The notes: generated from the sequence alone by a model not told the origin. A stretch of 32,000 nt of DNA from Raphidiopsis brookii D9 (GCA_000175855.1 ACYB01000037.1:1-32000), one strand, 5' to 3'. Counted from the first letter of the stretch, positions 7,209 to 25,094 are shown. Numbers and translations: made by a program.

Positions 7209-9773
7209 ATGTTAGAAGAATACCAACGACACACTCAAGAACGGGAAAACCTAGGTATACCCCCATTACCGCTAGATGTAGAACAAACATCTCAGCTGTG
7301 TGAATTACTTAAAAATCCTCCCCTAGGACAAGAAGAGCTATTATTACATTTATTACGGGATCGCATTCCTCCAGGAGTAGACCAATCAGCTTATATTAAA
7401 GCTGGGTTCCTCACCGCTATTGCTAAACAAGAAATTACCAGTCCTTTAATTTCCCCTCTCACCGCAGTGGAACTGCTAGGAACCATGGTGGGAGGTTATA
7501 ACGTACAGTCATTAATTAACTTGCTCTCCTCACCAGTAGCTGGATATGCAGCAACAGCACTAAGTAAAATTCTACTTGTATATGATTCATTCAATGATGT
7601 ATTAGAACTCTCTCAGACTAATTCCTATGCTAAACAGGTCATAGACTCCTGGTCCGCAGGAGAATGGTTCACCTCCCGTCCTACCCTACCAGACAAAATT
7701 ACGGTTACAGTTTTCAAGGTTCCAGGAGAAACCAATACCGATGATTTATCACCCGCTACCCACGCCACAACCCGTCCTGATATTCCCCTGCACGCCTTGG
7801 CAATGTTGGAAACCAGACAACCGGGAAGCTTGGAAACTATTGCCCAACTTAAACAAACAGGATATCCCATAGCATACGTGGGAGATGTGGTAGGTACGGG
7901 TTCATCACGTAAATCGGCAATTAACTCCGTATTATGGCATATAGGCAATGATATTCCCTTTGTTCCCAACAAAAGAGCAGGTGGTTATATTTTAGGCGGT
8001 GCGATCGCCCCTATCTTTTTCAACACAGCTGAGGATGCGGGTGCACTACCAATCCAGTGTGATGTAACTCAAATGGAAACGGGTGACATTATTACTATTT
8101 ACCCTTACCAGGGTGAAATCACTAAAGAAGGAAAAATCATTGCCACCTTCAATTTAAAACCAGACACGATTTTAGATGAAGTTCGCGCTGGTGGAAGGAT
8201 ACCTCTGTTGATTGGACGAACTCTCACAGATAAGACTAGACAAGCATTAGGTTTAGCACCCAGTGATTTATTTATTCGTCCCCAACTACCAAAAGACACA
8301 GGTAAGGGTTACACCCTAGGGCAAAAAATGGTTGGTAGAGCTTGTGGTCTCCCAGGTGTGCGACCAGGTACTTCCTGTGAACCAATTATGACCACGGTTG
8401 GTTCCCAAGATACTACAGGACCAATGACCAGGGATGAATTGAAAGAACTTGCTTGTTTAGGTTTCAGTGCGGATCTGGTGATGCAAAGTTTTTGCCATAC
8501 TGCAGCATACCCTAAACCAGTAGATGTGAAAACCCATCAAGAACTACCAGACTTTTTCGCATCCCGTGGAGGTGTAGCTCTTCGTCCAGGAGATGGGATT
8601 ATTCACTCCTGGTTGAACCGGATGTTATTACCAGACACCGTGGGAACTGGTGGAGACTCCCACACTCGTTTTCCTTTGGGCATATCTTTCCCCGCTGGTT
8701 CAGGACTGGTTGCATTTGCAGGTGCTTTGGGTGTAATGCCTTTAGACATGCCTGAATCAGTTTTGGTCAGATTTAAAGGAGAATTACAACCGGGAGTAAC
8801 TCTGAGGGATATTGTTAATGCTATTCCCTACGTTGCTATCCAAAAGGGACTATTAACAGTGGAGAAGAAGAACAAGAAAAATATCTTCTCCGGTAGAATT
8901 ATGGAAATTGAAGGATTACCAGATTTAAAAGTGGAGCAGGCTTTTGAATTGACTGATGCTTCAGCAGAACGCTCTTGTGCTGGTTGTACTATTAAACTAA
9001 GTGAAGAAACAATTGCTGAATATTTACGTTCTAATATTGCCCTGTTAAAAAATATGGTAGCCAGAGGTTATGGTGATGGGCGCACCATTATGAGACGAGT
9101 GGCTAAAATGGAAGCATGGTTAGCTAACCCCTTACTATTAGAAGCAGACCCAGATGCAGAATATGCAGAAGTGATTGAAATTAATTTAACTGAAATCAAG
9201 GAACCTATTGTCGCAGCCCCTAACGATCCTGATAATGTTAAATTATTATCGGCAGTTGCTAACGATACAGTACAGGAAGTATTTGTAGGCTCTTGTATGA
9301 CCAATATTGGACATTATCGCGCCACCGCTAAGGTCTTGGAAGGCGCAGGCCCAGTAAAAGCAAGACTGTGGATAGCACCACCAACCAGAATGGATGAGTA
9401 TCAATTAAAGCAAGAAAAGGTATATGATGTTTTTGTCAATGCCCAAGCAAGAACAGAAGTTCCCGGATGTAGCCTATGTATGGGAAATCAAGCAAGAGTA
9501 GAAGATAATACAACTGTATTTTCTACATCAACTCGCAACTTTAATAATCGCATGGGTAATGGTGCGCAAGTGTATTTAGGTTCGGCAGAATTGGCAGCGG
9601 TTTGCGCTTTATTGGGACGCATTCCTACACCAAAGGAGTATATGTCTGTTGTAATCGAAAAAATTAACCCCTTTGCCGATAATTTGTATCGCTACTTGAA
9701 TTTTGATCAAATTACCGGTTTTGAAGATCAAGGTAGGGTCATTAGCAAGGAACAGCAAGCTACTTTGATTTGA
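7209..9773 (+). CDS. acnB: bifunctional aconitate hydratase 2 / 2-methylisocitrate dehydratase
   Basis: The N-terminus [38 protein letters not shown] matches the AcnB HEAT-like domain. Fe-S ligand context VGSCMTN...[11 protein letters not shown]. 854 aa. Confidence 0.95.
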
Positions 9774-14969: not shown

Positions 14970-15605
14970 ATGTCTATTAAAAATACGATAGTTATGGGCA
15001 ATAATACTTGGGAAAAAACAACATGGGAATGGGAATTATATTTGTTCAATCAGCGAATACAACAATGGTTAGAATACCAATACTCTCAACTTTTTAAAAA
15101 CATCCCAGAAAATTCAAGATTGTCCATTAGTGAACAAATCCTGAAAATTCTACAAGTATTATTTTGGCTGATATTGGTTTTATTCTTGGCTTGGGTAATT
15201 TGGCGTTTATGGCAAGAATTTTACCCGGAAATACATACCTGGTGGAAAAATCTGAATTCTCCCTTTGGTCATCCCTCGATCCCTGATTCTCCTCCTCAGC
15301 TCTCTGGCAATTTCCTATTGGCTAAATCTCAAGAATTTTACCACCAGGGTGACTATCAAAAAGCCTGTCAGTTCCTATATTTTTCCATGCTGCAACAATT
15401 GCACGAAAGAGCGATCGCCCTTCAACAACCAAGTCGCACCGATGGAGAATATTTACAACTGCTCCTGGGCACTGTTGCTTCCATTCAACCCTATGAGACT
15501 TTAATTACTACTCATGAGCAGTTATGCTTTAGTAAGCATAAGATTTCAGCTGAGAATTATCAACACTGTCTTCATTCTTATCAAGAATTATTCAACTCTC
15601 CTTAA
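14970..15605 (+). CDS. DUF4129-like membrane protein (first gene of the MoxR operon)
   Basis: One TM helix (ILQVLFWLILVLFLAWVIWRLW). C-terminal SRTDGEYLQLL...YETLITTHEQLCFS resembles the DUF4129 module found with MoxR/DUF58/transglutaminase clusters. The stop lies 2 nt before the next start. Confidence 0.65.
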   Translation: MSIKNTIVMGNNTWEKTTWEWELYLFNQRIQQWLEYQYSQLFKNIPENSRLSISEQILKILQVLFWLILVLFLAWVIWRLWQEFYPEIHTWWKNLNSPFGHPSIPDSPPQLSGNFLLAKSQEFYHQGDYQKACQFLYFSMLQQLHERAIALQQPSRTDGEYLQLLLGTVASIQPYETLITTHEQLCFSKHKISAENYQHCLHSYQELFNSP

Positions 15606-15607
15606 TT

Positions 15608-16723
15608 ATGCTCCCCCTTAAACGTCGAATTTATCTAAGTGCGATCGCCTTGGTAATGGTGATCTTGGTTATTTTCAGCTTTACTCCTAGTCAGAATATC
15701 AAAAATGGTTCTAGTTATAATCGCGGTCCAGAAGGCTATGCTGGTTGGTATACTTTTATGCAAAATCAAGGGGTGAAGATCCAGCGATGGCAAAAGCCTT
15801 TTGTAGAAATTGAGCCAGTAACCAAACCAGTAACCTTGATTCAGGTCAATCCTGAATTAGTGCAAATCAACCGAAATTTGGTAGAAGGCAATTTTGAAGC
15901 TCAACAACTAAAATGGATAGAGCAAGGTAATACATTAGTTATTTTAGGGATCAAACAACCATCAACAGCAGCAGAATTTACTACCTATCAAGAATCACCC
16001 TTGGGTAGGGTCAAGATTGACACTAGCAGAAGATATGTTGAACCTACTCAGGAAGAAGTTTTATTGGGAGATCGTTTTGGTGCTGTGGTTTGGCAGTGGA
16101 AATCTGGTAAAGGAAAAGTAATATTTGCCACTACTATCCATCTCGCTGCCAATGCTTACCAAGATGAAGCCAACTTTAAGTACTTAGCAAAATTAGTTAC
16201 TGATGGGAGTGAAAAAATTCTTGTAGATGAATATATTCATGGATATAAAGATGTTAATCGAAACACTAATTATCAGGACAAGGAAGGAAATTTATTAGAT
16301 TACTTCGCCAAGACTCCATTATTTCCAATGCTATTACAATTAAGTATAGTAGTAATATTATTAATTTGGTCTGGCAATCGTCGTTTTGGTAGAGCTATCA
16401 AGCTAGATCTACCGATTACAGAGAACAGTCGGGCTTATATTCAAGCATTAGCAGCAGTTTTACGCAAAGCCCAATCTAGTGATTTTGTTTTAGAAATGAT
16501 TGGCAAAGAAGAGCAGTTGCAACTACAAAAGGTATTAGGAATGGGAAACACACCAGTAAACCAAGAGGATTTAATTAAAACTTGGCAACAACAAACTGGT
16601 AAAAGTCCAGCGGAGCTAGAAGAATTACTAAAAGTACAGACCAGCAAACAACGTATTAGTGAAAAGAACCTGTTAAACTGGTTAGCTAAATGGCAAAGTC
16701 TACGGAAAAATCAATCCATCTAA
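15608..16723 (+). CDS. DUF4350-like membrane protein
   Basis: N-terminal TM helix, a large extracytoplasmic domain, a second TM (LFPMLLQLSIVVILLIW), and a position between DUF4129 and MoxR as in the conserved cluster. Confidence 0.65.
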   Translation: MLPLKRRIYLSAIALVMVILVIFSFTPSQNIKNGSSYNRGPEGYAGWYTFMQNQGVKIQRWQKPFVEIEPVTKPVTLIQVNPELVQINRNLVEGNFEAQQLKWIEQGNTLVILGIKQPSTAAEFTTYQESPLGRVKIDTSRRYVEPTQEEVLLGDRFGAVVWQWKSGKGKVIFATTIHLAANAYQDEANFKYLAKLVTDGSEKILVDEYIHGYKDVNRNTNYQDKEGNLLDYFAKTPLFPMLLQLSIVVILLIWSGNRRFGRAIKLDLPITENSRAYIQALAAVLRKAQSSDFVLEMIGKEEQLQLQKVLGMGNTPVNQEDLIKTWQQQTGKSPAELEELLKVQTSKQRISEKNLLNWLAKWQSLRKNQSI

Positions 16724-16756
16724 ATTCACCCCTAGGAATAGATACAATAAAGACAC

Positions 16757-17707
16757 ATGAGCATAACACATTCAGCCGTAATTAACCTGGGAAAAGAAGT
16801 AAGCAAGATTATTGTGGGACAATCAGGTTTAATCAAGCAATGTTTAATTGCATTCTTAGCAGGTGGTCACATAATTTTGGAGGGAGTTCCCGGAACTGGA
16901 AAAACTTTGTTGGTTAAAGTTTTGGCACAACTGATTCAAGGAGAGTTCAAAAGAATCCAACTGACACCAGATGTGTTGCCATCCGATATCACAGGTACCA
17001 ATATTTTTGATTTAAACACCCGCAACTTCTATTTGAGGAAGGGACCGATTTTTACAGAAATCTTACTTGCTGATGAAATTAACCGTACTCCCCCAAAAAC
17101 CCAAGCTGCATTACTAGAAGCTATGGAAGAATTACAGGTGACCCTAGATGGTGAAAGTTTACCATTACCCGATTTATTTTGGGTGGTTGCTACCCAAAAC
17201 CCCCTAGAATTTGAAGGGACCTATCCCCTACCAGAAGCTCAATTAGATCGGTTTCTATTTAAACTAGTGGTAGGTTATCCAGATCAAGTAGCGGAAAAAC
17301 AAATGTTGTTTAATCGTCAATCTGGTTTTACAGGAAGAAGAATAGACATTTCTAATTTAAATCCAGTTACCACTGTAAACAATATACTACAAGCTAGACA
17401 AGCTGTAAAACAGGTGAATGTAGCTGAAGCTATAGTGGATTATATTCTAGAAATAGTGAGTAAGACCCGTAAACATCCTGATTTAGCCCTAGGCGCATCT
17501 CCCCGTGCTGCTGGAGCTTGGTTACAAACATCCCAAGCATGCGCTTGGCTTGCTGGTAGAGATTTTGTCACCCCCGATGATGTGAAAGCAGTTGCTGCTC
17601 CCCTATTGCGTCACCGTTTGATTTTAAACCCAGAAGCAATGTTAGATGGCTCAAAAATTGATTCGGTCATAACCACTGTAATTAATCAAGTTCCCGTTCC
17701 TAGATAG
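16757..17707 (+). CDS. MoxR-family AAA+ ATPase
   Basis: Walker A GVPGTGKT, Walker B LLADEINR, ATQNPLEFEGTYPLPEAQLDRF, and a C-terminal lid helix region. Typical AAA_3/MoxR. Confidence 0.92.
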   Translation: MSITHSAVINLGKEVSKIIVGQSGLIKQCLIAFLAGGHIILEGVPGTGKTLLVKVLAQLIQGEFKRIQLTPDVLPSDITGTNIFDLNTRNFYLRKGPIFTEILLADEINRTPPKTQAALLEAMEELQVTLDGESLPLPDLFWVVATQNPLEFEGTYPLPEAQLDRFLFKLVVGYPDQVAEKQMLFNRQSGFTGRRIDISNLNPVTTVNNILQARQAVKQVNVAEAIVDYILEIVSKTRKHPDLALGASPRAAGAWLQTSQACAWLAGRDFVTPDDVKAVAAPLLRHRLILNPEAMLDGSKIDSVITTVINQVPVPR

Positions 17708-17708
17708 T

Positions 17709-19028
17709 ATGATTCCAGCTAAAAAAGTTTATTTCTTATTGAGTTTAGGAATAGTTATTTCACCCATTTTATCGGTGATTGTGGGTATTTACCAAAGTAT
17801 TACCCTCACCCTACTATTTGATTTGGTGGTCATGGCACTGATGGTCATTGACTGCTTCAATATCAGAAAACATCGGGTCAAAATTAGTCGTCAATTACCT
17901 CTACGTTTATCTATTGGACGTGATAACTTAATAATATTGAACGTAGAGTCTGGGAATGTCAATAGTGCTATTCAAATTCGTGATTACTATCCTACAGAAT
18001 TTCCCGTATCCACATCTAACCTGGTAGTTAACCTTCCCCCTAATCATACTCAGGAAGTAAAGTACACCATTCGACCTAATCAACGGGGAGAATTTTGGTG
18101 GGGAAATATTCAAGTTCGACAGCTGGGAAATTGGGCTCTAGGGTGGGACAATTGGCAAATTCCCCAAAAAACTGTGGCTAAGGTGTATCCTGATTTGTTA
18201 GGACTCAGATCCCTCGCTATTCGTTTAACCCTACAATCTTCTGGATCTATCACTAAATTGCGTCAACGGGGAATGGGAACGGAATTTGCTGAACTCCGTA
18301 ATTACTGCATGGGGGATGACCTGCGGTTAATTGATTGGAAAGCTACAGCTAGACGTGCTTATGGAAATGTGAGTCCCCTAGTAAGAGTTCTAGAGCCTCA
18401 ACAGGAACAAACTCTGCTTATATTATTAGATCGTGGTAGACTAATGACAGCTAATGTACAAGGGTTAAAACGATATGATTGGGGTTTAAATACCACCTTG
18501 TCTTTGGCATTAGCAGGATTATATAGGGGCGATCGCGTGGGGGTAGGGATATTTGACTCTCAGGTACACACCTGGATACCTCCTGAACGAGGACAAAATC
18601 ACCTCAATCAACTTATAGACAGACTTACACCTATTGAACCAGTGTTAGTGGAGTCTGATTATTTAAATGCCATTACCTATGTGGTAAAACAAAAGACTCG
18701 TAGATCTCTAGTAGTGTTAATTACTGATTTAGTCGATGTTACTGCTTCCCATGAACTACTAGTAGCGCTGTGTAAATTAGTGCCTCGATATCTACCTTTT
18801 TGTGTAACACTCAGGGATCCTGGGATTGATCAAATAGCTCATACTTTTAGTCAAGACTTAACACAGGCTTATAATCGAGCAGTTTCTTTGGACTTGATAT
18901 CACAAAGAGAAATTGCTTTTGCTCAGTTGAAACAACAGGGAGTTTTGGTGTTGGATGCACCAGCAAATCAAATTTCCGAGCAGTTGGTGGAAAGGTACTT
19001 ACAAATCAAAGCCAAAAATCAGATTTGA
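17709..19028 (+). CDS. DUF58 domain protein (vWA-like, MoxR partner)
   Basis: Two N-terminal TM helices. GTEFAELRNYCMGDDLRLIDWKATAR is the DUF58 hallmark. The start is 1 nt after the MoxR stop. Confidence 0.85.
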   Translation: MIPAKKVYFLLSLGIVISPILSVIVGIYQSITLTLLFDLVVMALMVIDCFNIRKHRVKISRQLPLRLSIGRDNLIILNVESGNVNSAIQIRDYYPTEFPVSTSNLVVNLPPNHTQEVKYTIRPNQRGEFWWGNIQVRQLGNWALGWDNWQIPQKTVAKVYPDLLGLRSLAIRLTLQSSGSITKLRQRGMGTEFAELRNYCMGDDLRLIDWKATARRAYGNVSPLVRVLEPQQEQTLLILLDRGRLMTANVQGLKRYDWGLNTTLSLALAGLYRGDRVGVGIFDSQVHTWIPPERGQNHLNQLIDRLTPIEPVLVESDYLNAITYVVKQKTRRSLVVLITDLVDVTASHELLVALCKLVPRYLPFCVTLRDPGIDQIAHTFSQDLTQAYNRAVSLDLISQREIAFAQLKQQGVLVLDAPANQISEQLVERYLQIKAKNQI

Positions 19029-20815: not shown

Positions 20816-20858
20816 TTGACAAGAAATTTAGAATATTGTACAATATAGTTGTACAACT
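20816..20858 (+). promoter_or_regulatory. consensus sigma70-type promoter overlapped by two adjacent TGTACA-core palindromes (YefM-type operator)
   Basis: TTGACA (20816-20821), 17 nt, TACAAT (20839-20844). The perfect 14-bp palindrome ATATTGTACAATAT (20833-20846) abuts the perfect 12-bp palindrome AGTTGTACAACT (20847-20858). Confidence 0.6.
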
Positions 20859-20872
20859 TATTAAAAAAGAGA

Positions 20873-21469
20873 ATGTTAAACAAAGAAACCACTTACTCTC
20901 AAGCAAGGTTGAATTTAGCAACTATCTTAGATCAGGTGTGTGATCAACGGGAAATTGTAGTCATTAAACGTCGTAATGAGAAAAATGTCGCGTTAATTGC
21001 AGAAGATGAACTTTCCAGTTTATTAGAGTGTGTTTATTTATTAAGATCACCTGAAAATGCTAAACGTTTATTTCGAGCTTTAGAATGGACACAAACAGCA
21101 ATGGAAACTCCTCAAACATTGGCTGAATTAAAAGAGGAGTTAGGAATTGAGTGTAAGAAAAAAAAGCCGGATACTCATAATGAAGAAAAAGAATTATGTG
21201 GGTATTTTCCGGTTTTCAGTCCTGATTTTAAAGCAGATTTGGCTTGGTGGTATAATCATGATAGAAAAAAAGGGGATAAGATATTAGATTTAGTAGCGGA
21301 TATTCTTGATGGTCAACCGTTTACAGGCTTAGGTAAACCTGAACCTCTTAAATATATTGCTCCTGATACTTGGTCACGACGCATTGATTTAGAACATCGT
21401 TTGGTTTATAAAGTAACACAAAATAAAGTTTATTTTTTACAAGCTCGTTATCATTATGAATCAGATTAA
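20873..21469 (+). CDS. yefM-yoeB: YefM/Phd antitoxin domain and YoeB/Txe toxin domain in one reading frame (fused type II TA module)
   Basis: N-terminal TYSQARLNLATILDQV...VVIKRRNEKNVALIAEDELSSLLECVYLLRSPENAKRL matches YefM. C-terminal FSPDFKADLAWW...PFTGLGKPEPLKYIAPDTWSRRIDLEHRLVYKV...ARYHY matches YoeB, with the catalytic E (KPEPL), R (EHRLVY) and H-Y (RYHY) retained. The linker CKKKKPDTHNEEKELC (21152-21199) contains an A8 run (21158-21165). Start taken at ATG 20873 rather than TTG 20849. Confidence 0.8.
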   Translation: MLNKETTYSQARLNLATILDQVCDQREIVVIKRRNEKNVALIAEDELSSLLECVYLLRSPENAKRLFRALEWTQTAMETPQTLAELKEELGIECKKKKPDTHNEEKELCGYFPVFSPDFKADLAWWYNHDRKKGDKILDLVADILDGQPFTGLGKPEPLKYIAPDTWSRRIDLEHRLVYKVTQNKVYFLQARYHYESD

Positions 21470-21728: not shown

Positions 21729-22967
21729 TCATTGTTTGTGTATCTGAAAATCTGTGGCTTTAACCGATATTTTATCTCTTTTTCTATCATAACTTTCTTG
21801 TAAAATAAAGCTGACTCTCTGCTTTTCTTTACGCAAAAATTTAGGTAACTCTCGTTGTAAGAAGAAGACACGATTGCCAGTATCATCTATAATCCATCCA
21901 TGAGCCTTGTTAGGCGGTAATGATTCAATTGTACCGCAATAACGGGGAATTTCCCGATATATAATTTCTTTCCAGTATTTCCGACATATTTGATTTAACT
22001 TAGTGATATCTCCCTCAAATTTAGTGAATGTTAATTGCTGGTTAGTGATTTCCTGGTTAATTTTTGCTTGTAATTGTTGTAAGGTATCTTTGGCTTTCCA
22101 ACCTTCTCTTTCTCGAATTACCTTGCATAGTTCTAAATGTTGTGCAGACATTTCTAACTTTCCTAGTAATAAGCTTTGCTGACAAATTTTTTCATATAAA
22201 GTAACTTTAATTGTATCTTCTCCCGGAGATAATGCTGCTTGGCAAGCAAACTTTAGGGCTATTTCTGGCTGATTAATACGTAAATATATATCTGATAAAT
22301 CCTGATAAATATACCATTCTTCTCGATGTTTTAGCAAGATATCCTTCAACTCGAGAATAGCTTTTTCTTCTTCTGCTAGATTAGCTAATGCCAAAGCGAA
22401 GAATCTGTAAAAATTGATTTCTTTGGGGTAAAATTTAATTGCTTCTAACGCACAAGCACGAGCTTCTTGCCATAATTCAAGTCCAACCAGGCTTTTTACT
22501 TTAGCAAAAAACCATTGTTCTTTTTTAGATTTCCCCATTCTACCATCAACAAGTACTGGTTCATCACTCAGATCTTCCGATTTTATCAGATTACACCATT
22601 CTAAGACAATATCCCATTTCTCCTTTTGTTTAGCAGCTTTAATCACAGTGAGGACAGTTAATTCTTTAGGTAAAGTATCTGGCTGTAAACTTAAAATTTT
22701 TTCTGCTGATTGTACTAATTGGTGTAAATTTTCTTTGGATGCTTCTGGTTTAATACCATAATCATAATATGACCAAACTAATTCATTCTTAATATATTTA
22801 TTACCAGGAAATTGATTAATTGCTTTATTTCCTTGTTGAATAGACCCTGATGGATACCCACCTTTACGTAAACAATAAAGATAACGACTTGCAGCATAAG
22901 CATTATTTTGATTTTCCCATACTTGGCGAAAAATAGTTCCTGCTTCCTTCCATTGCTGTTGTTTCAC
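21729..22967 (-). CDS. TPR-like helical-repeat protein with a C-terminal cold-shock/OB-like domain
   Basis: GTG start. The helical-repeat character is judged by eye (e.g. WQEARACALEAIKFYPKEINFYRFFALALANLAEEEKAILELKDIL, YQDLSDIYLRINQPEIALKFACQAAL). The last ~70 aa (nt 21732-21944), GTIESLPPNKAHGWIIDDTGNRVFFLQRELP...RVSFIL, follow the G-x-V...GxGFI..D.G..VFFH pattern of cold-shock domains. It lies 69 nt downstream of the helicase gene on the same strand. Confidence 0.6.
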   Translation of the reverse strand: MKQQQWKEAGTIFRQVWENQNNAYAASRYLYCLRKGGYPSGSIQQGNKAINQFPGNKYIKNELVWSYYDYGIKPEASKENLHQLVQSAEKILSLQPDTLPKELTVLTVIKAAKQKEKWDIVLEWCNLIKSEDLSDEPVLVDGRMGKSKKEQWFFAKVKSLVGLELWQEARACALEAIKFYPKEINFYRFFALALANLAEEEKAILELKDILLKHREEWYIYQDLSDIYLRINQPEIALKFACQAALSPGEDTIKVTLYEKICQQSLLLGKLEMSAQHLELCKVIREREGWKAKDTLQQLQAKINQEITNQQLTFTKFEGDITKLNQICRKYWKEIIYREIPRYCGTIESLPPNKAHGWIIDDTGNRVFFLQRELPKFLRKEKQRVSFILQESYDRKRDKISVKATDFQIHKQ

Positions 22968-23036
22968 TAGTTCCGTTGCATTGTTTTATTAATTCATTTT
23001 CATTCATGATAATTAATTCCTGATATATGAATACTC

Positions 23037-24941
23037 CTATGAGTTGAACATGTCAAAACTTGAATCGTTTTTTAATTCCCGTACTAGTTTAGATTGATGA
23101 TGGACATACAAACTCAAATGTTCTTGAGCGCGAGTCATGGCAACATAAATCTGTCTTCTTGCTAAAATTTCAGCGTCTTTTTTACCAATAGAATCATCAA
23201 ACTGTTCTAACCAAATTAATAATACTGCTTTAAACTCTAACCCAAGAGATGAATGCATGGTTATAATTTTGACACCTTCTCTCTTTCCATTATATTGTCT
23301 TTTAGAATTATCATTTTGATTAACCCAGTAAGTGGATATACCTTGCTGATTGAATTTTCTGATAATAGAATCTAATCTTGGTACATATTCCTGACTTTTT
23401 TTTCTATATAAGATAGCTATATCGCGATCATCAATATTTAATGATTTCAAAGAATGGATAGTTGATATAATACATTCCTCTTGTTGATCAGGTGTGCTAG
23501 TTATATAAAGTTTTGGTTTATCCCCCTGTCTCAATGCTAAATCAGGTTTAACCAGAGGGAAAGTGACATCTTCTTCTTCTAAAGGTTCAACTAAATCAGA
23601 GACAGGGTTTAAAACATTCAAAGCAGATGACAGAATTTGATAAGTGTTACGGTAGTTTTTATCTAAGTCAAATTTCTTGCTAATAGTACGACCCTGCGCT
23701 CTAATTCCCACATCGGCCCACCTAAAATTAGACCTTTTATAAAGGCTTTGGTTGCCATCTGCAACAATCATTAAATCACTATTTTCACTATCTTTCAGAG
23801 CATTCAAGCAACACTGAAACCAAATAGGAACAAAAGTATGAGCTTCATCAATAAAAATAGCATCCCATTTCTGTTCTTGTGAATATTCAGATAATTTATT
23901 AATAACTAGGTTACCTATATATTCGTCACGATTTCCTTCAGATTGATTAGGTAATCTACCTAATACAGATTTTGCCCACTCATCAAAATTTCTGACTTCA
24001 ATATTTTGATAATGCTGATTTTGTGAATCTTGATGAAAAACTGATTTTATATGAGCTGCCAAACATACATTGAAACACAGTATTAATATTTTCGCATTAT
24101 GATTTTGGTTGATTAAGTATTTAGCGCGTGAGATTAACAATAGAGTTTTCCCCGAACCAGAGACACCGAAAAAGATACGATGACCATCTCCTATACTTTT
24201 AGACAAAGATTCTTGCTTACTGTCTAATGTTCTTAATATAACATCGCTTGGTAAAATTGAAAATTCAGAATTAAGACTTTTCAATGTAGCTTTTTCTGGT
24301 CTAATAACAATTTCAGGATATATAATTCCCCTGATAGTGCTAATCTGATCAGGTGTTAAAGGAGAAAAAACAAAGTCAATTCCAAACATTTTTTGAAAAC
24401 GCTGGATAATAGTTTTTTCTTGAATATCATCTTCTTCCCATGCCAATAATTCATCACGATAAATTACACTTTGAGTCGGTAGTACATCAGTTAAATTTTT
24501 TCTGTGAGCTTGTTCATAGGTCAAGTTAGACATAACTGCACCAACACCAATGGGAAAACATAAGTTCCCCTGATATTTGCCACATTGATTAGTTAATATT
24601 CTAGTTTCTTTCAGCAGATTTAATAATTTATCCAGATAGTCCTTACCCTGTCGTAAAGGAGACTTCTGTTTTTCAGTTGTCTCTAAATCATTACGATTAT
24701 TCTGAATTTTAAAAGTATCATAGGAAGCTGTAAGTATGTTTTTGGCATACCATCCCTTAACTTCTATAACAAGTAGCCCAAAATCAGGAGACAAAATAAT
24801 AAAGTCAGGATAACGACCATCTATTCTGGGTTCATACCAAACATAGAAATTATCTGATAACTTATTTCTGAGAATATTGTATAATTTCCTTTCTCCCTCA
24901 CTAGCTTTTCCAGGAATAGAGAACGGTATTATAGTTGCCAT
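23037..24941 (-). CDS. NERD-domain PD-(D/E)xK nuclease fused to an SF1 UvrD/Rep-like helicase (634 aa)
   Basis: N-terminus ERKLYNILRN...YPD46FIILSPDFGLLVIE60VK62GW is a NERD/PD-ExK core (nt ~24756-24806). Walker A GVSGSGKT (K265 = nt 24147-24149). Walker B IFIDEAHTF. SF1 motifs DKNYRNT, ITMHSSLGLEFKAVLL and IYVAMTRAQEHLSLY. Confidence 0.85.
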   Translation of the reverse strand: MATIIPFSIPGKASEGERKLYNILRNKLSDNFYVWYEPRIDGRYPDFIILSPDFGLLVIEVKGWYAKNILTASYDTFKIQNNRNDLETTEKQKSPLRQGKDYLDKLLNLLKETRILTNQCGKYQGNLCFPIGVGAVMSNLTYEQAHRKNLTDVLPTQSVIYRDELLAWEEDDIQEKTIIQRFQKMFGIDFVFSPLTPDQISTIRGIIYPEIVIRPEKATLKSLNSEFSILPSDVILRTLDSKQESLSKSIGDGHRIFFGVSGSGKTLLLISRAKYLINQNHNAKILILCFNVCLAAHIKSVFHQDSQNQHYQNIEVRNFDEWAKSVLGRLPNQSEGNRDEYIGNLVINKLSEYSQEQKWDAIFIDEAHTFVPIWFQCCLNALKDSENSDLMIVADGNQSLYKRSNFRWADVGIRAQGRTISKKFDLDKNYRNTYQILSSALNVLNPVSDLVEPLEEEDVTFPLVKPDLALRQGDKPKLYITSTPDQQEECIISTIHSLKSLNIDDRDIAILYRKKSQEYVPRLDSIIRKFNQQGISTYWVNQNDNSKRQYNGKREGVKIITMHSSLGLEFKAVLLIWLEQFDDSIGKKDAEILARRQIYVAMTRAQEHLSLYVHHQSKLVRELKNDSSFDMFNS

Positions 24942-24978
24942 GTTGAATTACTTATTATTTATAGTTTTACCACTGTTA

Positions 24979-24987
24979 ATTATAACA
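24979..24987 (-). promoter_or_regulatory. possible extended -10 element (TGTTATAAT) for the helicase operon
   Basis: The reverse complement of 24979-24987 reads TGTTATAAT, about 38 nt upstream of the ATG at 24941. No good -35 was found. Confidence 0.3.
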
Positions 24988-25094
24988 CTGTATAACCTTG
25001 TATGAGTAACTTAACAACATTTCTTAATATAGCCTTGCGCCAAAACCAAACCGCCCACCCCATAATAAATGGAGTGAGCGATTGTGTAATAATA

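Follow-up and report, generated by a model that had tools for sequence, protein, structure and literature searches.

The subject of this work is a pair of neighbouring genes in Raphidiopsis brookii D9, located in a stretch of 32,000 nucleotides (GCA_000175855.1, ACYB01000037.1:1-32000; hereafter the window). Both genes lie on the minus strand. Gene 1 (23037..24941) encodes a 634-residue fusion of a NERD nuclease of the PD-(D/E)xK type with a UvrD/Rep-type helicase of superfamily 1A (SF1A), and gene 2 (21729..22967, read from an internal GTG) encodes a 412-residue protein of tetratricopeptide repeats that ends in a cold-shock domain (TPR-CSD). The two genes are true partners. With a confidence slightly above even we read them as a linked conflict module, directed against phages or plasmids, that resembles the TOTE systems (TPR, OB, TBP, Effector; Aravind, Iyer & Burroughs 2022, as cited in PMC12458937). 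The fusion protein would be the effector of this module and the TPR-CSD protein its sensor or adaptor, corresponding to the TPR-OB component of TOTE-type systems. As far as this class is represented in the citing paper, the cassette is a two-gene variant without TBP of a class that is already named and predicted, and the account of 2022 may itself already list the NERD-UvrD form.

The partnership is seen most directly in the conservation of the pair among cyanobacteria. Two peptide patterns derived from the TPR-CSD alignment were scanned against one genome per species (185,579 species representatives), which gave 24 loci, and a scan of metagenomes with TPR-CSD patterns gave 24 further ones. 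Eighteen cyanobacterial loci have sufficient flank to be informative, namely the window, 11 from genomes, 4 from metagenomes and 2 reached from the helicase. The NERD-UvrD gene adjoins the TPR-CSD gene in all of them (18/18; 11/11 for genomes and 4/4 for metagenomes), at a distance of 27-90 nt. An earlier reading of the window from its sequence (the original prediction) had proposed two co-directional open reading frames (ORFs) for 634 and 412 residues, and an ORF check in the window confirmed this layout, with a spacing of 69 nt on one strand; the neighbourhood on which that prediction depended is conserved elsewhere. The genes point the same way in 13 of the 18 loci and towards each other in 5, so the adjacency has survived inversion. 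In the two loci reached from the helicase, the homologues in Planktothrix serta (57% identity) and Cyanobacterium aponinum (55%) have an adjacent DUF7017/TPR gene, and the pair is kept at helicase identities of at least 55% and at TPR-CSD identities down to about 44-51%. With r = 0.976, a value that 0 of 2000 Mantel permutations reach, the pairwise identities of the one protein mirror those of the other; this correlation means co-inheritance and is compatible with co-evolution or with shared species history. The distribution is patchy, with 11 cyanobacterial species genomes matched among the 185,579 representatives in the two-pattern scan, and the position of the cassette varies among other cyanobacteria. 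Toxin-antitoxin (TA) genes occur near the pair in two loci (L030 and L031). An accessory conflict module accounts better than a housekeeping function for the patchy occurrence, the low guanine-cytosine (GC) content and the frequency of inactivation, and the gene pair is real and probably defensive. A phage origin was also considered and rejected, as the viral contig collection contains no relative and PHROGs no entry for the TPR-CSD protein.

The gene 1 protein has all parts of a nuclease-helicase. Its NERD domain (residues 13-111, 24609..24905, minus strand) matches Pfam PF08378 with E 2.6e-9 and 38 bits (cut-off 22.1), and it contains the catalytic-type triad D46, E60 and K62. The SF1 helicase core (residues ~250-620, 23082..24194, minus strand), where the Pfam models UvrD-helicase and UvrD_C match as well, comprises Walker A GVSGSGKT at position 259 (with K265), IFIDEAH at 362 (DEAH 365-368), Q398, NYRNT at 429, HSSLGLEF at 563 (GLEF 567-570) and YVAMTRA at 599 (VAMTRA 600-605). 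All nuclease residues and helicase motifs of the original prediction therefore stand where it had placed them, with support from Pfam. In 40 homologues with identities down to 23% the residues D46/E60/K62, Walker A and B, Q398, R431, E569 and R604 are invariant. An AlphaFold2 (AF2) model with a mean confidence (pLDDT) of 85 has UvrD/Rep/PcrA as its top Foldseek matches in the Protein Data Bank (PDB), and a profile search against PDB sequences gives UvrD/PcrA (E 1e-17) and Rep. Its motifs, together with the 1A/2A core fold of the model, place the protein among the SF1A helicases of the UvrD/Rep/PcrA type; matches to ResIII and SWI2_SNF2 span the shared P-loop region only. As nuclease and ATPase residues are intact, the predicted effector appears to be competent. 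Between the NERD domain and Walker A lies a confidently modelled alpha/beta region of ~140 residues (112-250) that is rich in invariant positions, e.g. F129, P130, W168, R181, Q199 and P209, and for which no family match was found.

The gene 2 protein was modelled by AF2 from a 24-sequence alignment with pLDDT 92.9 as 17 helices (residues 6-337) followed by five strands (342-409). Pfam assigns DUF7017 and, weakly and below threshold, TPR_14/TPR_15, whereas the best PDB matches of the helical part in Foldseek are TPR superhelices. The C-terminal domain (residues ~340-410, 21738..21950, minus strand), with HGWIIDD at 356 and RVFF at 366, is predicted to form a five-stranded barrel of the cold-shock/OB type. 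This assignment is supported by homologues, since Pfam CSD PF00313 is found at the aligned C-terminal position in the full-length homologues P0035-P0039 (31-35% identity), and by a profile of the domain that matches CspC/CspA structures with E 7e-9 (3 of the 11 profile sequences are canonical CSDs). The barrel that had been suggested from the sequence is borne out by these models and profiles, and so is the TPR nature of the remainder, whereas the length of 412 residues is not that of the homologues, which have 425 residues, so that the ORF is short by 13. The PADLOC profile PDLC01170, described as 'TPR repeats containing protein fused to cold shock-like domain (OB-fold)', is matched over its full length with E 7.8e-36. 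Another PADLOC entry, PDC-M16, matches weakly over the DUF7017 stretch only; it is a separate two-gene candidate and does not give the identity of the cassette.

Outside the cyanobacteria the TPR-CSD protein belongs to a larger family, with 471 members at E<=1e-30 and 1179 at E<=1e-10 among 1.84 billion cluster representatives at 50% identity (TPR-CSD profile search). The enzymes next to it vary. In Chloroflexota-type loci (L012, L013, L025, L041-43, L046, L056) a NERD-UvrD gene lies upstream, and a gene with TBP-like, RNase HII and XPD-type helicase parts lies downstream. Elsewhere the TPR-CSD gene is found beside a 1753-residue helicase and RNase H (L028, L048), beside Lon-RNase HII (L029) or beside protein kinase-RNase HII (L011), and in one database protein (P0253) RNase HII is fused to TPR-CSD itself. 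Residues 2-408 of the window protein align with the TPR-CSD protein of locus L014 (28% identity, E 3e-48), where it follows AEP-TOTE and Cas1 genes. An enzyme gene stands beside TPR-CSD in every locus with identifiable neighbours; the short loci L018 and L019 have no identifiable neighbour. One conserved module, the putative sensor, is combined with many alternative enzymes across phyla. The motifs Y-x2-C-L-R-K-x-G and W-[YF]-F-A-[KR]-[VI]-K are invariant in the family alignment whatever the partner enzyme is, and because of this invariance they fit a common sensing role as judged from the alignment.

Some of these loci have peculiar compositions that are worth recording. The third operon gene of L012 (11270-14395) encodes two tandem TBP-like domains, a degenerate RNase H motif (DESGKGD changed to DELDQGE) and an XPD-type helicase, and its RNase H module is apparently inactivated, as far as the motif tells. 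In a second group (L014 6760-12622, L015, L017, L022, L051-L053, L057) the gene order is a TPR-primase with the Pfam domains AEP-TOTE and Mu-Gam-TOTE, a stand-alone Cas1, TPR-CSD and a protein similar to the second palm of Cas10/Cmr2. By their sequences these would be Cas1 and a Cas10-like cyclase/polymerase palm inside a conflict locus that is not CRISPR. A search of plasmids for the family gave a single distant match, the canonical RNase HIII-type locus L059 (Bacillus sp. BR3 plasmid NZ_CP152438.1, 6009-9768), in which the annotated genes rnhC (RNase HIII), a TPR-CSD homologue, an RnlA-family toxin and the RnlB antitoxin are co-directional in this order; the locus resembles the canonical TPR-OB/TBP/effector arrangement, with a known TA pair added to it.

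How the cassette relates to systems already described can be judged from several sides. According to a preprint of 2025 (PMC12458937), in its statement on the earlier work, the TOTE systems of Aravind, Iyer and Burroughs 2022 are characterised by TPR-CSD together with TBP genes as their defining parts, and Pfam contains TOTE-named domains (PF22548 AEP-TOTE, PF22709). The window cassette shares with TOTE the signature array of ~420-450 residues of TPR ending in a CSD/OB barrel, to which its gene 2 protein is homologous over the full length, as well as the principle of one conserved module with a variable enzyme next to the TPR-OB gene. It differs in having two genes only and a NERD-UvrD fusion as effector. 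A hidden TBP-like domain was sought with a hidden Markov model (HMM) built from the domains that precede RNase HII in 8 TPR-CSD-linked genes. This HMM recovers all non-cyanobacterial partners of the RNase HII type with E 1e-20 to 1e-62, while on six-frame translations of the window and the other 17 cyanobacterial loci its best match has E 0.5 and lies inside rRNA; a hidden TBP-like domain in the cassette is therefore rejected. Because the AEP/Cas1 variants, which Pfam labels as TOTE, are also without a match to this HMM, TBP may not be universal in TOTE.

TALON is described in the 2025 preprint as a NERD nuclease with TPR-CSD, TBP and a YprA helicase; this SF2 helicase of the YprA family carries a C-terminal inactivated RNase H domain, and the system is largely confined to Chloroflexota. 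TALON and the window cassette have a NERD-type PD-(D/E)xK nuclease and a TPR-CSD protein in common, but the helicase of the window is an SF1 enzyme of the UvrD type that is fused to NERD, its cassette is without TBP, and it is cyanobacterial. No Helicase_C or DUF1998 is among the Pfam matches listed for the window helicase (E up to 1). Similar in architecture are the three-gene operons of NERD-UvrD, TPR-CSD and TBP-RNaseHII-XPD (Anaerolineales L012, Chloroflexota L013, metagenomic L025, L043 and L056), the first two genes of which have the same architecture and order and often overlap. Their helicases, however, are ~23-24% identical to that of the window, and the third gene with its TBP-like and XPD-type helicase parts is absent in the window. 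The claim that the pairing is undescribed does not hold in view of the PADLOC-DB profiles for both proteins, the homologues in Pfam TOTE loci and the naming of TOTE and TALON in the 2025 preprint. What is unreported in the literature accessible to search, a body that excludes the original account of 2022, is the minimal TBP-less two-gene form of cyanobacteria.

The helicase by itself also has a named place. It matches the PADLOC profile C3a187 'NERD+UvrD' (PDLC01087) with E 7.8e-94, residues 8-624 aligning with profile positions 10-554 of 559, and this cluster was listed as an accessory candidate of type III CRISPR (Shah et al. 2018, PMC6546367). The full-length match and a 48%-identical plasmid relative upstream of cmr2-cmr3 speak for this kinship. 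Unlike such accessory genes, the window cassette has as its partner, throughout its clade, TPR-CSD, and the 32-kb window contains neither CRISPR repeat arrays nor, among the ORFs tested, cas genes. The alternative left by the original prediction, a helicase of a named single-gene family with an unrelated TPR neighbour, applies in part: the helicase falls in C3a187, but the TPR gene is linked to it and co-diverges with it. The prediction had further compared the protein with Nhi. Nhi (Bari et al. 2022), which acts alone, and Nhi-like (Millman et al. 2022) are single-protein nuclease-helicases that protect, and the comparison stands at the level of an N-terminal nuclease and an SF1 helicase in one polypeptide, with NERD in Nhi-like. 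It fails for the helicase type, which is DUF2075/SLFN-g3 in those proteins, whereas the window helicase matches UvrD models well; DUF2075 (PF09848) reaches 22.7 bits, under its cut-off of 24, and no Nhi profile is among the best 25 of 30 PADLOC matches (E up to 3.2e-4). A more distant likeness, by analogy only, is offered by the human antiviral STAND proteins SAMD9/SAMD9L, whose C-terminal TPR-OB region, regulatory in its role, runs from TPR arrays into a five-stranded OB barrel, although there it is part of one giant STAND protein. Foldseek searches of the PDB returned generic TPR and generic SF1 structures and no solved defence complex.

Relatives of the helicase occur in further contexts. 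It is a defence-context enzyme with several partners, and only the clade of at least ~55% identity is tied to TPR-CSD. A relative lies beside a pair similar to restriction-modification (RM) genes on a contig of conjugative type (L061), another beside a convergent HEAT-repeat protein (L034) and a third beside an AAA_16/22 ATPase (L032). In Limnospira (L060) DarT and a Macro-domain gene come after a 52%-identical NERD-UvrD helicase, and on the Planktothrix tepida plasmid LR882971.1 (L033, 5001-11893) a 48%-identical one immediately precedes the type III-B CRISPR genes cmr2 and cmr3 and a RAMP gene.

Division of labour between a sensor or regulator and an effector, which had been suggested from the beginning, is still the best reading of the pair. 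TPR-CSD would be the conserved sensor or adaptor, whose cold-shock-type OB barrel may bind either a single-stranded nucleic acid or the strand displaced in an RNA-DNA hybrid, in both cases produced by an invading replicon. RNA-DNA hybrids or priming intermediates of such replicons are candidate ligands because RNase H and TBP partners recur in other variants. The TPR superhelix would hold or release the partner enzyme and in this way pass the signal to NERD-UvrD as the effector. Once licensed, the SF1A motor of the latter would load on invader DNA and move 3'->5', and the PD-(D/E)xK domain of NERD would cut this DNA. Control by TPR-CSD might have either sign, being activation or release from inhibition. 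The ligand and the direction of control in the specific form proposed here are doubtful details of the scheme. A stricter version of it takes the pair as a self-sufficient, TBP-independent immune system and as the irreducible core of the TOTE class, in which the CSD on its TPR scaffold detects nucleic acid or protein of the invader and directly licenses the nuclease-helicase; this version is possible, with a probability short of even.

Several observations weigh against a TOTE-like defence module as described above. One of the parts that define TOTE is missing, as no TBP-like or RNase H-fold gene was found in the 18 cyanobacterial loci by the TBP HMM and six-frame translations. The helicase might work without a partner, because its homologues of at most 52% identity have no TPR-CSD neighbour. 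The cyanobacterial CSD is divergent: the Pfam CSD model has no direct match in the window protein at reporting level, K-A-H-G-W-I stands for RNP1 (K-G-F-G-F-I) and V-F-F-L-Q for RNP2 (V-F-V-H-F), and of the five canonical RNP aromatic/His positions three are kept (H356, W358, F367). Because of this divergence the ligand may be something other than nucleic acid; canonical RNP motifs are present in distant family members. No member of the family occurs in the viral contig collection or in PHROGs, which is neutral for defence and provides no positive link to phages. Furthermore, the local neighbours, psbA and the rRNA operon in the window and transporters in relatives, do not form a defence island, the sensor gene of the window is frameshifted at codon 8, and in the literature searchable here no experiments on this gene pair or on any TOTE-type system were found.

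The frameshift can be followed in detail. Homologues of gene 2 have 425 residues and the start MNENELINNATELVKQQQW, and the closest database protein to its product is 98% identical, intact and of the same 425 residues. In the DNA alignment the ancestral ATG corresponds to 23005-23007 (minus strand), and the A-run at 22984-22987 has one extra A, a 1-nt insertion at codon 8 that is unique to the window in comparison with its relatives L001, L003 and L004. Through this extra A the ancestral ATG is out of frame and the ancestral frame stops early, and the 412-residue ORF begins at an internal GTG 40 nt downstream, without 13 residues of the ancestral N-terminus. The gene may have been frameshifted recently, or the homopolymer may have been misread in sequencing, and the system of the window may accordingly run from the internal GTG, be inactive, or contain a base that is a sequencing error. 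Damage of other kinds is seen in related strains. In Dolichospermum circinale AWQC310F (L002, NZ_KE384669.1, 1759-1764) a 643-bp deletion corresponding to window positions 22889-23531 takes the C-terminus of the helicase, the spacer between the genes and 28 codons at the start of TPR-CSD, so that the cassette is inactivated; the helicase of a Dapis locus (L008) has an internal stop, and the TPR gene of a metagenomic locus (L039) has two.

Four other explanations have to be set against this evidence. The insertion, seen against three relatives and against the 98%-identical protein of 425 residues, as well as the clear inactivations in other strains, suggest that the cassette of this genome could be a decaying remnant in which, owing to the frameshift at codon 8, TPR-CSD is no longer translated and the system has ceased to function. 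We regard this as rather unlikely, since both ORFs are otherwise intact and 97-98% identical to intact relatives, the in-frame GTG 40 nt downstream gives a protein short of just 13 poorly conserved residues, and a homopolymer error in sequencing may be behind the extra base. The same frameshift bears on a logic similar to TA systems, in which NERD-UvrD would be intrinsically toxic and TPR-CSD would mainly be an inhibitor or chaperone, released or degraded on infection or stress, so that the pair would be an abortive-infection or addiction module. With the putative inhibitor frameshifted and the nuclease-helicase intact, such a cassette would kill its host if inhibition could not be dispensed with, unless translation from the GTG is enough. 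Nevertheless, the tight coupling of the genes even when convergent, the frequency of TA genes as neighbours, the Bacillus homologue of TPR-CSD directly beside RnlA/RnlB, the autoinhibitory TPR-OB region of SAMD9 (by analogy) and the repeated decay of the cassette in several lineages, as expected of a costly module, would all suit this logic. Since helicase relatives exist without any such partner, it appears unlikely; it also overlaps with the TOTE-like module and differs from it in the sign of control only.

The helicase contexts raise the question of whether the enzyme needs TPR-CSD at all. It could be a self-sufficient single-gene defence or a CRISPR-accessory enzyme, following the logic of C3a187 or Nhi, with TPR-CSD as an independent neighbour or dispensable modulator. 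This is suggested by the full-length C3a187 match, by relatives without TPR-CSD that lie beside cmr, DarTG or RM genes, a HEAT-repeat protein or an AAA_16 ATPase, and by the protection that single-protein nuclease-helicases such as Nhi do confer. It becomes improbable in view of the adjacency of TPR-CSD in all 18 loci of the clade of at least 55% identity and across inversion, of the co-divergence of the two proteins, and of the fact that TPR-CSD is never alone where neighbours are identifiable and is once fused to an enzyme. Least probable of all is a role in housekeeping, i.e. the maintenance of nucleic acids (R-loops and RNA-DNA hybrids, or stalled transcription and replication near highly transcribed rRNA operons) instead of immunity. 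Such a role would explain why an rRNA operon ends, with its 5S gene, immediately upstream of the cassette both in the window and in Sphaerospermopsis kisseleviana NIES-73, and it would suit the RNase H-type enzymes acting on RNA-DNA hybrids among other TPR-CSD partners and the housekeeping genes that flank the cassette in relatives. An indispensable function is hard to reconcile with a patchy gene pair (11 cyanobacterial species genomes in the scan of 185,579) that is low in GC relative to its genome, occupies different positions in other cyanobacteria and is inactivated in several strains; moreover, relatives lie on plasmids and beside CRISPR, RM and DarTG genes, and Pfam and the literature place the family among conflict systems.

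With the class named, Pfam domain models available and PADLOC-DB profiles existing for both proteins, the finding is not categorically new. TOTE-type systems are widespread, yet they are computational predictions only in the literature searchable here, and the class is most simply entered through a form of just two genes, for a sensor candidate and for an effector whose activities (ATPase, helicase, nuclease) are easily assayed. The pair could reveal what TPR-CSD senses and how this module controls RNase H, Lon, kinase, primase/Cas1 and helicases; if a TBP-independent system is true, it would be a two-gene model for finding the trigger of the TOTE class. It is also a defence candidate for bloom-forming Nostocales, in which phage resistance has ecological weight.

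Composition and surroundings of the cassette in the window complete the description. Its GC content is 0.327 against 0.405 in the first 19 kb of the window, in agreement with the AT-rich stretch noted originally, and GC at third codon positions (GC3) is ~0.23 in comparison with ~0.29-0.31 in housekeeping genes of the window. Upstream of gene 1 the extended -10-like element TGTTATAAT (24979..24987, minus strand) is a putative promoter as read from the sequence; a consensus scan listed no full -35/-10 site at this element. DNA homology with Anabaena sp. UHCC 0451 and Sphaerospermopsis kisseleviana NIES-73 is limited to 21731-25032, a block that consists of both genes and ~90 nt upstream and thus, reaching 25032, spans this element. 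The intact pair of NIES-73 is found at AP018314.1 1,837,900-1,841,110. In the window as in NIES-73 the cassette lies directly downstream of the 5S end of the rRNA operon, which in the window is on the strand of the cassette and comprises 16S (29972-28485), two tRNAs, 23S (28112-25292) and 5S (25213-25096). Between 5S and the cassette a terminator-like hairpin with a 15-bp stem and a T-tail (25049..25083, minus strand) is predicted to be strong and would set the cassette apart from the rRNA operon. Direct repeats as scars of insertion were sought around the cassette and none were found. The far flank in the two relatives, Anabaena sp. UHCC 0451 and NIES-73, consists of housekeeping genes (ABC transporters, ExoD, aldolase), unlike the YefM-YoeB and psbA genes of the window.

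The typical defence-island context that had been claimed for the window is therefore weak, the other neighbours being psbA and the rRNA operon and the far flank in two relatives being of the housekeeping type. The adjacent TA module that had been reported is present as to its YefM and YoeB domains, but these form one single ORF of 206 residues (20849-21469, plus strand) with a Phd/YefM antitoxin domain (residues 13-81) and a YoeB toxin domain (residues 123-203). Within it there is no in-frame start for a separate yoeB, and the linker contains an A8 run; antitoxin and toxin are either genuinely fused or were joined by a frameshift. Upstream of psbA an operon-like run of DUF4129, DUF4350, MoxR-type AAA_3 ATPase and DUF58/VWA genes (14970-19028, plus strand) is a module of the MoxR-vWA type and is unrelated to the gene pair. 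In the window the gene for aconitase B (7209-9773) and the cassette are ~12 kb apart; the aconitase B gene adjoins the helicase gene directly in Planktothrix serta (L030 3165-5768) and is near the cassette in a metagenome-assembled genome of Oscillatoriales (L006 5577-7976). This recurring proximity may be residual synteny or coincidence.

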